Shown here: in pieces, positions 6,349 to 11,856 of the stretch | Numbering within the stretch: the stretch's first letter is position 1 | Layout: the number at the start of each line of letters is the position of its first letter | Assembly: GCA_030605785.1 (NCBI GenBank) | Contig: JAUWHS010000065.1 | Location: 1 to 56,877, forward strand | DNA: 56,877 nt | Source: a bacterium | GTDB lineage: Bacteria; Babelota; Babeliae; Babelales; JAUWHS01 | Direction of reading: 5' to 3' | The notes under the pieces: generated by a model | The model's database searches: none | The model's input: the letters and a program-made list of their open reading frames with translations, nothing else | Told to the model about the DNA's origin: nothing | Program-made: the position numbers and the translations under genes

Positions 6349-7215
6349 GTGAAGTTTTTTTATGAAATAAAAGATATTTTTTCTTCTAAATTGTTTTTAG
6401 CTTTTTTATTTTCTTTTCTAAGTTTTAATTTGCAGGCTGAGCCTGCAAACAAAAGTGAATTTGCGTTAAAGTCTGAGATACAATATAACGGTATAGGAAC
6501 CGATGTTCTTGATTTATCTTATAAAAAATCTTCTGAATCTGGTACTATCATTGATTTTGTTTTTGAAAAATGTATGGATTCTATTTTAAAAAGAAATAAT
6601 AAAAAAAATATTACTTCTTTAAATCTTTCAGGAAACCTTTTAACAGGTCTCCCTCAAAAAATTAAGGAATTAAGCAATTTAGAAGTTTTAAATCTTTCAA
6701 ATAATAAATTTAAAAAATTGCCAAAGATTTTGACAAAATTAAAAAGTCTTAAGAAACTCGATCTTTCTTCTAATAAAGTGTCAAGCGAAAAATATGATGC
6801 TTTAACAGTAAGGGATCAAGATTTAACAGATTTAGAAGACTTGGATGCTTCCAAATTTGGAATTTTTGAATTGACGCATGAAATAGGAAATATAGAAAAT
6901 CTTGAAGAATTAAATTTGGCTGGAAATGGCATCGTGTGGTTGACTTCTAGAATAGGTAAATTAAAAAAACTAAAAAGATTAAATCTTTCAAAAAATCAAC
7001 TTATAGAATTACCGGAAGAAATTGGGGAGCTAGAAAGCCTTATTTATTTAAATATTTCAGACCAAGCAGATGATGAGATTGTAACTATTCCTCGTTCATT
7101 GGAAGAAAAAATGGAGGGGAAAAAGCTAATCATTGTTGTTGATGAAAAAAAAGATGAGCGAAGTTGGGCACGATATTCTTTAGATGTTATAAATTATTAT
7201 TTGGGTAGAAAATAA
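6349..7215 (+). CDS. Secreted leucine-rich-repeat protein
   Basis: GTG start 5 nt after AGGAG. Signal-like N-terminus. Several LxxLxLSxNxLxxLP units (LNLSGNLLTGLPQKIKELSNLEVLNLSNNKFKKLP, LNLSKNQLIELPEEIGELESL). Confidence 0.7.
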   Translation: MKFFYEIKDIFSSKLFLAFLFSFLSFNLQAEPANKSEFALKSEIQYNGIGTDVLDLSYKKSSESGTIIDFVFEKCMDSILKRNNKKNITSLNLSGNLLTGLPQKIKELSNLEVLNLSNNKFKKLPKILTKLKSLKKLDLSSNKVSSEKYDALTVRDQDLTDLEDLDASKFGIFELTHEIGNIENLEELNLAGNGIVWLTSRIGKLKKLKRLNLSKNQLIELPEEIGELESLIYLNISDQADDEIVTIPRSLEEKMEGKKLIIVVDEKKDERSWARYSLDVINYYLGRK

Positions 7216-7291: not shown

Positions 7292-10200
7292 TTAGATATC
7301 TAAGTTTTTTACAAAGTGCGCATGCTTTTCAATGTATTCACGTCGATCTTCAACGACATCACCCATTAAAGATGTAAACCATTGGTCAGCTTTAATGCCA
7401 TCTTCAATCGTAACTTTAAGAAAACTTCGTACTGCCGGATCCATAGTTGTTTCCCAAAGTTGTTCCGGATTCATTTCACCAAGACCTTTGTATCGTTGAA
7501 TTGTCATTAAAGATTTTCCGGAACCTATTATTGTGTTTGAAAAATTTAAAACACCAATTCCGGCTTTTTCATTTTTATCACTGATTGTAAAAATCCATTT
7601 ACCTTCATCAAGCATTTTTATTGGTTTATAAAGATTTAAAAGGTTTTCAGTTTCTTCTGACGCGAAAAATGTTAATGGAACTTCCCATGTTTTTTTGTTT
7701 TCTTTAAATATTAACATTTCTTTTGTTTGATCTTCTGTTTCAAGCGCGTTTTCATCTTCTTGATCAGTTTTAAACTTGCAGTCTATTTTATATTTTGGAT
7801 AATGTTTTTGTAGATTTTCTAGAATTTCATTTGGTGTATATTTGCCCAATTGCCAATCGATTGAATTTAAAAATCCGGTTAATTCATGACAATGTATTTT
7901 TGATACTTCTATATAGTTACTTAATTTTGTTATTTCGTTTTCGTACTTTAAAGTTTTATTTAACAATTCTGACCAATCTGATTCTTTGTACAATTTTTTA
8001 TCCACTTTTAAGTGTGTGTTTTTTTCAGCCCATTCAAATAAAAATTGTTTTAATTCAGAATCATCTTGTAAATATTTTTCTGCTTTTCCAACTTTTGCTT
8101 TGTAGAGTGGTGGTTGCGCAACATACAAGTAACCTTTTTCGATCATTGGTTTCATATGTCTGAAGAAAAAAGTTAAAAGCAAAATTCGAATATGTGAACC
8201 GTCAACGTCGGCGTCTGTCATTATAACAACTTTATGATAACGGACTTTGTCCGTATCAAATTCGTTGTTCCCGATTCCGGCGCCAATCGCGGTTACAAGA
8301 TCTTTTATTTCATTGTTCGCTAACATTTTATCAAAGCGAGCTTTTTCAGCGTTTATAATTTTACCTCTGAGTGGAAGAATTGCTTGAGTGAAACGGTCAC
8401 GAGCCTGTTTGGCACTGTTGTGAACAAAAACTCCGCAAGCTAACGCGAAATTATGTGTTTCTTCCACTTCTAAATCATAAACATCTATTTTACGATCAAG
8501 CTTTAGAATAGTTTTAATTTTATGGTTATAGTGTTTTACTGCATCTTTTAATTTCTTCTCATCACCATTAAAAAATCTTGAACAAAATGTGTTGTATAGT
8601 AAAAGATTTGGATTTTTTAATTTTTTTCGTTCATTGTCATATTCTGTAAAACATTGTTGTTTGTCATGCAACTCTTTTAAAACTTTTATTGTATTTTCAT
8701 AGTAAGTTTTATTATAAGCCTTTTTTCTATTTTCTCTGAACTCATTTGTCCATTGATTTTTTGTTTTTTCACTACGCCAGGATAGAAGGCTTTCATTTTT
8801 CCATTGTTGCTTTGCAATATTGGAAAGACTTTCTTTTTGTTGTGGATTTTGTTTAAAAAATTCTTTAACTTTTTCAGATTGTTTTTTTCTGTTTTCAGTA
8901 TTTCCCCAGTATTTGATTTGATTTTCATTTAATTGTTTGTTGTTTTTTTTTCTGTAATCTTTATTGTTGTTATAAAAGTCTAGAAATTTCTTTACCATAC
9001 AACTTTTGTATTCTTCATTTTCCCACTGCGCTTTTGCTCTTTTGCTTAGCATCGCTTTCATTTTAGGGGTAGACATAATAGCGCTAACTTTGGCTTTGTA
9101 TTCTTTTGTTTGATGAGCTTTTTTAGCTTTTTCTTTTACGTCTTCTCTGTGAATGGTAAATTCTAACATTTGGCGATGTAGAGCCAGATGGTCATCTTTG
9201 TGCATGCGTACAATATTTTCAGGATTATTGTTAATCTTGTTGAAATTTACATGGTGTTTGTGTGATCCGTTTTTTAAAGAGTATTTATTTTGTCTTAAGT
9301 TAAATTTATCTGATAACAAATGAGTAAAGATCCATTTTTGATTTTTATTATCTAAAACCATTTCATAGCCGGCAATGGTAATTCTTTTTTCGATCTTAGA
9401 AAGTTTTCGGTAAAGAGGCATTAAAGAATCAGTCAGAATTAAATCTTGCGCTTTTTTGTAAGACCCATCTTTTAGCATAAATAAATGATCGGGAGTGCAA
9501 GTGATTTCTTTATCGTTATCTAAAATCACCTTTATTATGCTGGTATTGGTTTTTGTTTTTCTGGGATGCTTGATTAATGCTATCTCTATGTTTCCTTCTT
9601 TTGTTGTTGTATAGCAATAATTTTTTATACCTTTTTCATGTTCTTTAACTAGATCTCTAAAACTTATGTCTCTTCCATCAAGTAATGCTATTTTTGTATC
9701 TCCTGAAAAACAACCGCCGGCGGAATCTCCTTCCACAATGAAAAGTTCTGTTTTTGAAGCATCCGTTTCGGAACAATCGGCAAGTTTTCCCGGTAGGATT
9801 GAACTTTCAAGAACAGTTTTTCTTCTTGTTAGTTCTCTAGCTCTTTTTGCGGCGTTTCTTGCTTGTTGCGCAAGTTGCGCTTTTTGCAGAATTTTTTTAG
9901 CTATTTGAGGATGTTCCTCAAAATATGTGTTTAAAAACGCGTATGTCCAAGAATCAACCAAACCTTTAACTTCACTGTTTCCAAGTTTGGTTTTTGTTTG
10001 TCCTTCAAATTGAGGTTCAGGAACTTTAATACTTAAAACACAAACAATTCCTTCTCTGACATCATCACTTGAAAAACTTTCACCATCTTTTAGAATTTTG
10101 AAAGTTTGAGCAGCTTTATTACAACTTTTTGTTAAAGCTGATCTAAGCCCGGCTTCATGTGTTCCGCCTTCAGTTGTTCTGATGTTGTTTACGAAACTAA

Positions 10201-11029
10201 AAACCTGATCAGCGTAACCGTCATTATATTGACATGCTATTTCTAAGACGTATTGACCATCATCTTTTTGGAATTGTATTATTTCTTTGAATAAAGGATT
10301 TTTTTTAGCGCTTACAGCTTCGACAAATGACGCGATTCCACCTTCAAAGAAAAAGACTTCTTCTTGTTCAGTATTTTCATCTTTGATTTCTATTTTTAAA
10401 CCTTTATTCAAAAAGGCAAGTTCTCTTAACCTTGAAGCAAGTGTGTCGAATTTAAATCCTGTTTCGTCAAAAATTTTAGGATCCGGTGTAAACCGAATAT
10501 ATGTTCCTGTTTTGTCTGATGTTCCGGTCTCTTTTAATGGCGCTAATGGTTTACCTCTTTTGTATTCTTGTTCGTAAACTTTGTCATTTCTATAAACTTT
10601 AATTTTCAAGTTTTCAGATAAAGCGTTTACGACAGAAACACCAACTCCATGTAAACCACCGGAATATTTGTAGGAATCTTTTTCAAATTTTCCGCCGGCG
10701 TGTAATTTGGTTAACACAACCTCAGTCGCGGATATTTTTTCCGTTGGATGAATATCAACGGGAATTCCTCGTCCGTTATCTTCTACGGAACAAGAACCGT
10801 CAGAATGCAGAATTACTTTTATTTTATTACAGTATTCTGCCAACGCTTCGTCAACGGAGTTATCTACAACTTCGTAGACCAAGTGATGAAGACCTGAAAT
10901 ACTTGTTGATCCAATATACATGGCAGGTCGTTTGCGAACGGCGTCTAAACCTTCTAATACTTTAATAGACTTTGCGCCATATTCTTTTGTTGATTTGTCT
11001 GTTTTTTTTATTTTTTCATCTTTTCCCAT
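7292..11029 (-). CDS. gyrB: DNA gyrase subunit B, interrupted in frame by an intein
   Basis: GHKL ATPase motifs are present (YEVVDNSVDEA, DNGRGIP, GGLHGVGVSVVNALS). The Toprim motif EGDSAGG is split from SAKQARDR by 432 aa. C-terminal QRYKGLGEM. The total of 1245 aa compares with about 810 aa once the insert is removed. Confidence 0.95.
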   Translation of the reverse strand: MGKDEKIKKTDKSTKEYGAKSIKVLEGLDAVRKRPAMYIGSTSISGLHHLVYEVVDNSVDEALAEYCNKIKVILHSDGSCSVEDNGRGIPVDIHPTEKISATEVVLTKLHAGGKFEKDSYKYSGGLHGVGVSVVNALSENLKIKVYRNDKVYEQEYKRGKPLAPLKETGTSDKTGTYIRFTPDPKIFDETGFKFDTLASRLRELAFLNKGLKIEIKDENTEQEEVFFFEGGIASFVEAVSAKKNPLFKEIIQFQKDDGQYVLEIACQYNDGYADQVFSFVNNIRTTEGGTHEAGLRSALTKSCNKAAQTFKILKDGESFSSDDVREGIVCVLSIKVPEPQFEGQTKTKLGNSEVKGLVDSWTYAFLNTYFEEHPQIAKKILQKAQLAQQARNAAKRARELTRRKTVLESSILPGKLADCSETDASKTELFIVEGDSAGGCFSGDTKIALLDGRDISFRDLVKEHEKGIKNYCYTTTKEGNIEIALIKHPRKTKTNTSIIKVILDNDKEITCTPDHLFMLKDGSYKKAQDLILTDSLMPLYRKLSKIEKRITIAGYEMVLDNKNQKWIFTHLLSDKFNLRQNKYSLKNGSHKHHVNFNKINNNPENIVRMHKDDHLALHRQMLEFTIHREDVKEKAKKAHQTKEYKAKVSAIMSTPKMKAMLSKRAKAQWENEEYKSCMVKKFLDFYNNNKDYRKKNNKQLNENQIKYWGNTENRKKQSEKVKEFFKQNPQQKESLSNIAKQQWKNESLLSWRSEKTKNQWTNEFRENRKKAYNKTYYENTIKVLKELHDKQQCFTEYDNERKKLKNPNLLLYNTFCSRFFNGDEKKLKDAVKHYNHKIKTILKLDRKIDVYDLEVEETHNFALACGVFVHNSAKQARDRFTQAILPLRGKIINAEKARFDKMLANNEIKDLVTAIGAGIGNNEFDTDKVRYHKVVIMTDADVDGSHIRILLLTFFFRHMKPMIEKGYLYVAQPPLYKAKVGKAEKYLQDDSELKQFLFEWAEKNTHLKVDKKLYKESDWSELLNKTLKYENEITKLSNYIEVSKIHCHELTGFLNSIDWQLGKYTPNEILENLQKHYPKYKIDCKFKTDQEDENALETEDQTKEMLIFKENKKTWEVPLTFFASEETENLLNLYKPIKMLDEGKWIFTISDKNEKAGIGVLNFSNTIIGSGKSLMTIQRYKGLGEMNPEQLWETTMDPAVRSFLKVTIEDGIKADQWFTSLMGDVVEDRREYIEKHAHFVKNLDI
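8417..9712 (-). mobile_element. GyrB intein (432 aa) with HNH homing-endonuclease core
   Basis: Starts with Cys in GG|CFSGDT and ends VFVHN|S. Block-B-like TPDH. HNH-like HKHHVNFNKINNNPENIVRMHKDDHLALH. The boundaries were checked codon by codon on the minus strand. Confidence 0.9.
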
Positions 11030-11370: not shown

Positions 11371-11856
11371 ATGCGTACTAAATATGGTTTAAATATGATT
11401 AAGAAAAATAACGATTTTTTTATGCAAAAAGCATTAGATCAGGCAAAACTTGCTTTTAAAATAGGTGAGGTTCCGGTTGGAGCTGTCATTGTTGATTCTG
11501 ATGGAGAAGTTTTAGCAAAAGGTTACAACAAAATAGAAAAAGATAAGTGCCAACTATACCACGCTGAAGTGATTGCAATTAAAAAAGCTTGTAAAAAAAA
11601 GGGTGATTGGCGATTGGATGATTGTTGGATGTATGTAACTTTAGAACCCTGTTTAATGTGTTTGGGACTAATGAAGTTGAGTAGATTAAAAGGTGTTATT
11701 TACGGCGCAAAATCACCATTATTTGGGTTAGGATGTAAATTTGATAAACTCCCTGTATTTTATAAGAAAGGATTTGAAATAATTGGAGGGGTTAAAAAAA
11801 AGGAAAGCGCGGATCTATTAAAATATTTTTTCAACCTTGCAAGAGAAAGGGGTTAG
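11371..11856 (+). CDS. tadA: tRNA-specific adenosine deaminase TadA
   Basis: Deaminase zinc motifs HAEVIAI and PCLMCLG, plus EVPVGAVIV. Alternative in-frame starts lie at 11395 and 11422. Confidence 0.85.
   Translation: MRTKYGLNMIKKNNDFFMQKALDQAKLAFKIGEVPVGAVIVDSDGEVLAKGYNKIEKDKCQLYHAEVIAIKKACKKKGDWRLDDCWMYVTLEPCLMCLGLMKLSRLKGVIYGAKSPLFGLGCKFDKLPVFYKKGFEIIGGVKKKESADLLKYFFNLARERG

Follow-up and report, generated by a model that had tools for sequence, protein, structure and literature searches.

A candidate splicing-competent intein with an HNH nuclease module and a helical repeat array in the gyrB gene of a Babeliales bacterium

Introduction

The gene for DNA gyrase subunit B (gyrB) on contig JAUWHS010000065.1 (assembly GCA_030605785.1, Babelota, lineage JAUWHS01), whose whole stretch of 56,877 nucleotides is referred to here as the window, carries 432 extra codons within the conserved Toprim motif of the enzyme. 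This locus raises the question of what the inserted segment is, whether it would still splice and still cut DNA, and how it came to reside in this small bacterium of amoeba-symbiont type, a member of the Babeliales (Dependentiae/Babelota). Judged from its sequence, the segment is, with a probability of roughly 0.9, a splicing-competent class-1 intein of the GyrB family that contains an HNH nuclease module.

The gyrB intein family has been known since the 1990s. Splicing of its Synechocystis representative, the Ssp GyrB intein, is said to have been shown experimentally, and a paper of 1997 was reportedly the first to call that intein HNH-type. A first-pass annotation of the window, made from the letters of the DNA, had proposed an apparently intact intein resembling Ssp GyrB, with an HNH core and four tryptophan-containing repeats, and had taken its presence in this lineage as a sign of horizontal homing.

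Results

A 432-codon insertion splits the Toprim motif

The 1245-amino acid (aa) open reading frame (ORF) scored 930.7 bits against the NCBIfam gyrB family TIGR01059 and 1032.7 bits against PRK14939, and contained the Pfam domains HATPase_c, DNA_gyraseB, Toprim, and DNA_gyraseB_C. On the minus strand, positions 8417-9712 read as 432 stop-free, in-frame codons, CFSGDTKIALLDGR...THNFALACGVFVHN, between LFIVEGDSAGG and SAKQARDRFTQ; the plus-strand reading of the same interval is full of stops and was ruled out. The Pfam Toprim match picks up again at residue 872, at profile position 13, indicating that the insertion splits Toprim a few residues past its catalytic glutamate, and the intein position lies six residues after that glutamate. 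In 33 Babeliales GyrB proteins, EGDSAGG is joined directly to S/TAKQ. Since these same-order relatives are colinear without the segment, the 432 codons represent an insertion at exactly that point.

The coordinates, the codon count, and the location in the Toprim motif, as given in the first-pass annotation, were reproduced exactly by translation of the window. Of the flanking motif that it quoted, EGDSAGG is present, and SAKQGRDR has to be corrected to SAKQARDR, a position at which the relatives have Ala or Gly; the minus strand had been left unstated. The features of the gene are listed in Table 1.

The genome is a metagenome-type assembly of 1.18 Mb in 136 contigs, with 90.5% completeness and 2.7% contamination. 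It yielded a single GyrB/ParE-type match, which is this gyrB, and a single intein match. The N-extein is 81% identical to that of a same-genus relative (G001). Fragmentation and contamination of this degree could produce a chimeric contig, in which a Babeliales gyrB is joined to a foreign intein. However, the reading frame is continuous across both junctions, the composition is uniform, and the exteins are approximately 78-82% identical to those of the same-genus relative, which has a mini-intein at the same site. In addition, P0003, a metagenome protein of independent origin, combines an N-extein of 76% identity with an intein of 75% identity. An assembly or binning artefact is, on these grounds, of negligible probability.

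Table 1. Features of the gyrB gene and of its intein in the window
Feature	Position	Strand	Description	Evidence
gyrB coding sequence, including stop	7292..11029	-	1245-aa precursor; 813-aa GyrB predicted after splicing	ORF list and translation
N-extein	9713..11029	-	Residues 1-439, ending ...LFIVEGDSAGG; ATPase and transducer domains, start of Toprim	Pfam HATPase_c, DNA_gyraseB
Intein (P0001)	8417..9712	-	432 residues, Cys1...His431-Asn432	Translation, intein profiles, family alignment, model
N-terminal splicing (HINT) half	9398..9712	-	Intein residues 1-105; block A Cys1, block B Thr73-x-x-His76	TIGR01445 (6e-11); model
HNH nuclease domain	9155..9397	-	Intein residues 106-186	phrog_7545, motif, model
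HNH core	9176-9265	-	Intein residues 150-179; H153, H154, N161-N163, P164, N166, H175, H179	
Basic helical repeat array	8678..9154	-	Intein residues 187-345	Self-alignment, composition, all-helical model (pLDDT 92.5)
Helical linker to splicing domain	8528..8677	-	Intein residues 346-395; less conserved	39.9% mean identity
C-terminal splicing part	8417..8527	-	Intein residues 396-432; block F (VYD, D413), block G THNFALACGVFVHN	TIGR01443 (6.3e-07)
C-extein	7292..8416	-	From Ser+1 (SAKQARDR...); remaining Toprim, ~170-aa insert, C-terminal tail, stop	Pfam Toprim, DNA_gyraseB_C

The splicing residues are invariant and the predicted fold is that of a HINT domain

The intein passed the Pfam profile Intein_splicing (PF14890; 51.4 bits, cut-off 35.8) and the profiles for the N-terminal (TIGR01445; 43.2, cut-off 24.5) and C-terminal (TIGR01443; 29.4, cut-off 15.6) splicing regions. 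In a family alignment of 50 sequences, which consists of the window intein and 49 relatives from metagenome loci (alignment A1), the residues C1, T73, H76, D413, H420, N421, H431, and N432 are invariant, and the TPDH of block B stands at residues 73-76, as had been claimed. All 106 inteins parsed from database matches and relatives are followed by Ser at position +1. At the 115 columns with 90% or higher conservation, the window intein deviates at two (K29I and V59I), which is the family median.

The AlphaFold2 model built on alignment A1 had a mean predicted local distance difference test score (pLDDT) of 86.9, and its N-terminal splicing half is beta-rich with a pLDDT above 90. A Foldseek comparison matched the model to the solved inteins NpuDnaE, NrdJ-1, SspDnaE, SspDnaB, and Mtu RecA with E values of approximately 1e-6 to 1e-5. 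When the intein sequence was compared with the PDB chains, nothing beyond weak splicing-block matches was obtained (NrdJ-1, 1e-4), and no GyrB intein structure is among those chains. The mean identity of the relatives to the window intein was 59.8% in the N-terminal splicing region, 53.6% in the nuclease, 54.8% in the repeats, and 73.8% in the C-terminal splicing region, compared with 39.9% in the linker (residues 346-395) against 54-74% in the other regions. These results agree with the earlier claim of an intact intein with all of the canonical splicing residues.

Because this gyrB is the single GyrB/ParE-type match in the genome, a working gyrase would require splicing. We infer with high confidence, from the intact catalytic residues and from gyrB being the genome's only copy, that the intein splices. 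In the proposed reaction, Cys1 would attack the peptide bond at Gly-1, in an N-S acyl shift that yields a thioester, and Ser+1 would then take the N-extein by transesterification. Asn432 would cyclise to free the intein, and an O-N shift would leave a normal EGDSAGG-SAKQ bond in a GyrB of 813 aa.

A predicted HNH nuclease module lies between the two splicing regions

Residues 109-200 of the intein matched the PHROG profile of an HNH endonuclease (phrog_7545, 2.2e-9), and a further PHROG HNH profile matched at 7.7e-7. The core previously quoted from the sequence is present, within HKHHVNFNKINNNPENIVRMHKDDHLALH at residues 151-179. The motif HH(153-154)-x6-NNNP-x-N(161-166)-x8-H175-x3-H179 is invariant or nearly invariant across the 50 family sequences. 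In the AlphaFold2 model, the segments 151-154, 167-170, and 172-181 form the strand-strand-helix arrangement predicted for an HNH motif, and a separate model of residues 103-396 reached a pLDDT of 92.5. The Pfam profile HNH_3 matches 46 of the 59 aligned family members (best 6.3e-7), the window copy not being among them. These results support the assignment of an HNH nuclease module in the window intein.

The nuclease is probably still active, an expectation held less firmly than that of splicing. Its activity and its target are assigned with moderate confidence, from the conservation of the motif and by analogy.

A basic array of helical repeats follows the nuclease

In the region after the HNH core, the four loosely repeated tryptophan motifs of the first-pass annotation are all present as quoted. 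The W-x-N/D-x-E motifs at W230, W269, W304, and W321 mark helix-helix junctions and recur with a period of approximately 35-39 residues. A profile self-alignment of the repeats gave a best off-diagonal score of 51.9, compared with 20.4 +/- 3.2 for 200 column shuffles, none of which reached it (z = 9.8), so that the repeat is statistically real. The array contains 40 Lys and Arg residues versus 19 Asp and Glu residues in 159 residues. W230, E234, Y235, and W304 are invariant in the 50-sequence family alignment, and the array is conserved approximately to the same extent as the HNH domain.

The repeats were compared with NUMOD3 (PF07460), and this identity was rejected: a profile search up to E = 10 gave no match in the repeat segment (203 aa), in the viral GIY-YIG enzyme described below, or anywhere in the genome. 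The array matched no other Pfam family either. The same helical modules occur in free-standing GIY-YIG homing endonucleases of viral contigs, with 33% identity over 75 residues. Viral contigs were also searched for the intein, since they might act as its vector; they contained no gyrB intein, and all that was found was the repeat module, in GIY-YIG nucleases.

One of these enzymes, on a 117-kb IMG/VR contig (L015:2557-3396, plus strand), is a free-standing GIY-YIG homing endonuclease (PF01541, 9.5e-08; phrog_314, 2.3e-18), whose C-terminal half is made of W-x-N-x-E-Y/H-R/K helical modules (MWKNTEHR, QWENEEYK, and QWQNEDYR). Modules of this kind were also seen in L014, L016, and L017.

The basic composition of the array, its conservation, and its occurrence in phage GIY-YIG homing nucleases make it plausible that the repeats are DNA-binding modules. 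A more specific proposal, which we put forward tentatively and with slightly more doubt than belief, is that residues 187-345 form a distinct, unnamed, and structurally unsolved DNA-binding solenoid, common to HNH inteins and phage GIY-YIG homing endonucleases, that would set long target sites.

The intein belongs to a large family at a single gyrB site

A database search with the intein part, as the first-pass annotation had proposed, gave at least 3,586 matches at E <= 1e-3 to proteins with a GyrB intein at the same site; 8,000 candidates were scored, and the count is a lower bound. The best 120 of these at least 3,586 proteins are all intein-bearing GyrB, the inteins aligning along 100% of their length at 54-75% identity, and originate from a Babeliales bacterium, many groups of Patescibacteria, Woesearchaeota, and Pacearchaeota. 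The hosts of the family comprise Patescibacteria, DPANN archaea, cyanobacteria, Chloroflexi, and methanogens, and the inteins parsed from the database matches are 429-436 aa long. NCBI has already given some of the proteins the name 'intein-containing DNA gyrase subunit B'. The window intein is assigned, by its sequence, as an ordinary member of this well-populated and already annotated family.

The link to cyanobacteria was tested by searching species genomes with an approximate Synechocystis-type mini-intein probe, which served only to fetch real sequences. The search gave 418 confirmed loci, none of them an exact match to the probe (best 84%, in an uncultured cyanobacterium, L128). The insertion lies between GDSAGG and S in all 70 parsable named-genome loci and in the 106 proteins from the database and from relatives. 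Nine complete cyanobacterial copies and two from Chloroflexi (eleven in all, 435-444 aa) are 45-51% identical to the window intein over 432 positions, in an almost gapless alignment.

The cyanobacterial GyrB inteins compared, from Pannus brasiliensis CCIBt3594, Floridaenema flaviceps, Phormidium, Pseudanabaena, Halothece, Pleurocapsa, and Xenococcaceae, share with the window the insertion site between GDSAGG and SAKQ, the order of HINT-N, HNH, W-repeat array, and HINT-C, and the length (432 versus 435 aa), and their residues in blocks A, B, F, and G agree as well. The Babeliales inteins, however, lie in the part of the tree dominated by Patescibacteria and DPANN, outside the clade of cyanobacteria, Chloroflexi, and methanogens. 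The proposed likeness to the Ssp GyrB intein therefore stands as full-length homology, at the same site, to cyanobacterial copies other than that of Synechocystis PCC 6803.

The GyrB inteins of Patescibacteria (candidate phyla radiation) and DPANN are more similar, with 56-64% identity over all 432 residues, lengths of 431-436 aa, and the same site, motifs, and Ser+1. Unlike most of these hosts, the window has a GyrB extein of the long form (813 aa, with an insert of approximately 170 aa). Mini-inteins at the same gyrB site, in Methanoperedens, Moorena, Raphidiopsis, and the Babeliales genomes G001, G004, and G040, have the same splicing blocks and interleave with full-length copies in the tree. 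With lengths of 135-245 aa, they have neither HNH domain nor repeat array, whereas the window copy is complete.

Among phage inteins, the whole model of the window intein matches, in BFVD, a Hint protein of Bacillus phage SP-15 (E = 1.6e-23, 441 columns) and also a terminase intein with 27% identity. The phage inteins differ in their host genes and insertion sites, and the catalytic domain of the free-standing phage enzymes is GIY-YIG, not HNH.

In the literature, a relationship among the GyrB inteins of candidate phyla, Archaea, and Cyanobacteria was reported, and a mini-intein at the same site was described in the GyrB of Desulfonema ishimotonii (PMC6390638). Sixty-one intein-containing archaeal GyrB sequences were removed from one data set (PMC9348778), and the use of Ssp GyrB as a split intein is mentioned elsewhere (PMC7765530, PMC3443213). 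A full-text search gave nothing for 'CFSGDT', nor for 'GyrB intein' together with HNH.

Variants of the gyrB insertion were also noted. The metagenome contigs L095 (2501-3670) and L097 (2501-3670) encode a divergent GyrB intein of 390 aa, 35-39% identical to that of the window, in which part of the helical array is missing and the HNH motif and splicing blocks are kept. Longer intein-bearing GyrB proteins are P0048 (1625 aa), P0055 (1659 aa), and P0076 (1279 aa); P0055 and P0076 also match LAGLIDADG_3 (PF14528), a sign that they may carry a further intein elsewhere in gyrB.

Full-length, shortened, and empty alleles coexist within the Babeliales

In a sample of 38 gyrB genes from Babeliales, two have a full 432-aa intein (the window genome and G002), three have a shortened intein, and 33 are empty. 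The shortened inteins occupy the same site and have different breakpoints. In the same-genus genome G001 (L004, G001:C13), the intein is 158 aa long and the whole nuclease is gone. It is 176 aa long in G040 (L006, G040:C11) and 239 aa long in G004 (L005, G004:C5), where the deletion begins halfway through the HNH motif, which breaks off at '...HKHHINFNKHDNSPANIERKKSKNPNLL'.

Two further observations were made in these genomes. The block B of the G001 intein reads TPNH instead of TPDH. A second, shorter GyrB-like match in G015 (G015:C8:114-1232, a 491-aa frame) has no intein at the junction and may be a ParE-type paralogue or contamination.

In the host tree, calculated from the exteins, the window genome and G001 are sister to the family of G004, G040, and the empty G024, and G002 lies in the other major clade. 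A careful search for the intein tree placed the seven Babeliales inteins in one clade (97/97), with the branching order of their hosts. A quick tree had set the G002 intein apart, as would be expected from two invasions; this was rejected, since in the approximately unbiased (AU) test the tree constrained to hold all seven together was not rejected and was better than the quick tree, and the careful search recovers the clade. The path lengths of intein and extein are similar between the same pairs of genomes. Other Babeliales supply the inteins most similar to that of the window, with identities of 75%, 65%, and 62.5%, and of 76% over 158 columns with the same-genus mini-intein.

The GC content at third codon positions (GC3) is 0.241 in the intein versus 0.230 and 0.241 in the exteins. 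The overall GC of the intein is 0.289; a foreign composition was considered and rejected, because the lower overall value reflects the Lys/Asn-rich content and the GC3 equals that of the exteins. The mirroring of the host tree by the intein tree, together with the equal GC3, indicates that the intein is an old resident, vertically inherited with gyrB. The window intein thus looks vertically inherited and not recently acquired.

At a greater distance, the relationship is different. In comparison with 102 proteins, mostly from Patescibacteria and DPANN, the mean identity was 58.9% for the intein versus 53.0% for the N-extein, and the intein value was the higher one in 80% of them, whereas inside the Babeliales the intein is less conserved than the N-extein. 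A transfer between phyla at a deeper level is therefore likely to have occurred at some time.

A recent horizontal homing event from Patescibacteria or DPANN in the same habitat is an alternative account of the window copy. The higher cross-phylum similarity of the intein than of the N-extein and the enormous, patchy family would fit it. Conversely, the nearest inteins are those of other Babeliales, in one well-supported and host-like clade, the path lengths of intein and extein correspond, and the GC3 shows no difference, so that recent homing is considered improbable. Of the proposal of horizontal homing in the first-pass annotation, the part that survives concerns the deep timescale; the intein-versus-extein phylogeny, which it had also proposed, and the GC3 argue against a recent arrival.

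The common ancestor of the sampled Babeliales may already have carried the intein, at the cost of many later losses, or the intein may have moved between Babeliales lineages. A published review covers the homing cycle and how mini-inteins arise (PMC7765530), and the Babeliales pattern, as read from these alleles, is the decay half of that cycle.

Neighbouring genes

The ORF adjoining gyrB at 6349-7215 on the plus strand (288 aa) encodes a leucine-rich-repeat protein (LNLSGNLLTGLP... repeats) whose N-terminus is hydrophobic, of a kind common in amoeba-associated bacteria. The 161-aa ORF at 11371-11856 on the plus strand has, by eye, the HAE...PCxxC signature of a tRNA adenosine/cytidine deaminase (TadA-like).

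Discussion

According to the proposed mechanism, the protein of 50 kDa excised from the GyrB precursor would act as an HNH homing endonuclease of the beta-beta-alpha-metal type. The basic, tryptophan-marked helical array would hold the nuclease on DNA, presumably reading approximately 30-60 bp around the empty site. The nuclease would cut an intein-less gyrB at the site that encodes the junction of EGDSAGG and SAKQ, and repair would copy the intein in. The empty sites of the relatives are identical to the joined flanks of the window at 37-48 of 60 bases. In the Babeliales, the intein would be an old resident, which most lineages have lost cleanly, of which three keep a remnant predicted to be splicing-competent, and which two keep whole.

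Several observations weigh against a splicing intein with an active homing nuclease. Pfam HNH_3 gave no match to the window copy, either in a direct scan (E <= 0.1) or in a whole-genome search (E <= 10). Foldseek of the nuclease and repeat model (residues 103-396) against the PDB gave no significant match, the best being I-PpoI with E = 5.7, and the assignment to the beta-beta-alpha-metal fold accordingly rests on the motif, the profile, and the predicted secondary structure. Long vertical inheritance does not guarantee selection for an active nuclease, and the high conservation could stem from a different function, for example in assisting folding or splicing. That the genome has only one gyrB is, in an assembly of this fragmentation and completeness, not absolute.

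These points lead to the alternative that the intein splices and that its HNH domain does not home, being either inactive or kept for the stability of the splicing fold or for DNA binding, so that the element would be a vertically inherited passenger on its way to a mini-intein. The host-mirroring intein tree and the host-like GC3 make recent homing unneeded, the nuclease has already been deleted in three relatives, and the window copy falls under the HNH_3 threshold, all of which are consistent with this alternative. On the other hand, all of the HNH motif residues and 113 of the 115 highly conserved columns are kept, conservation across phyla in the nuclease and repeat regions comes close to that of the N-terminal splicing half, and the relatives lost the nuclease by deletion and not by point decay. 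A passenger with a non-homing HNH domain is thus judged rather unlikely, and an intein that splices and probably retains its nuclease is preferred.

As the window intein belongs to a well-populated family that NCBI already annotates, the value of the locus as a discovery is small. In annotations, the 'GyrB' of 1245 aa should be divided into an enzyme of 813 aa and an intein of 432 aa; the NCBI name of at least one relative from the Babeliales is simply 'DNA topoisomerase subunit B'. The repeat array is a reasonable target for work on DNA recognition by HNH and GIY-YIG homing enzymes. For the family, the Babeliales provide a compact natural series of full-length, nuclease-deleted (with three breakpoints), and empty alleles of one gene, and thereby a clean illustration of decay in the homing cycle.

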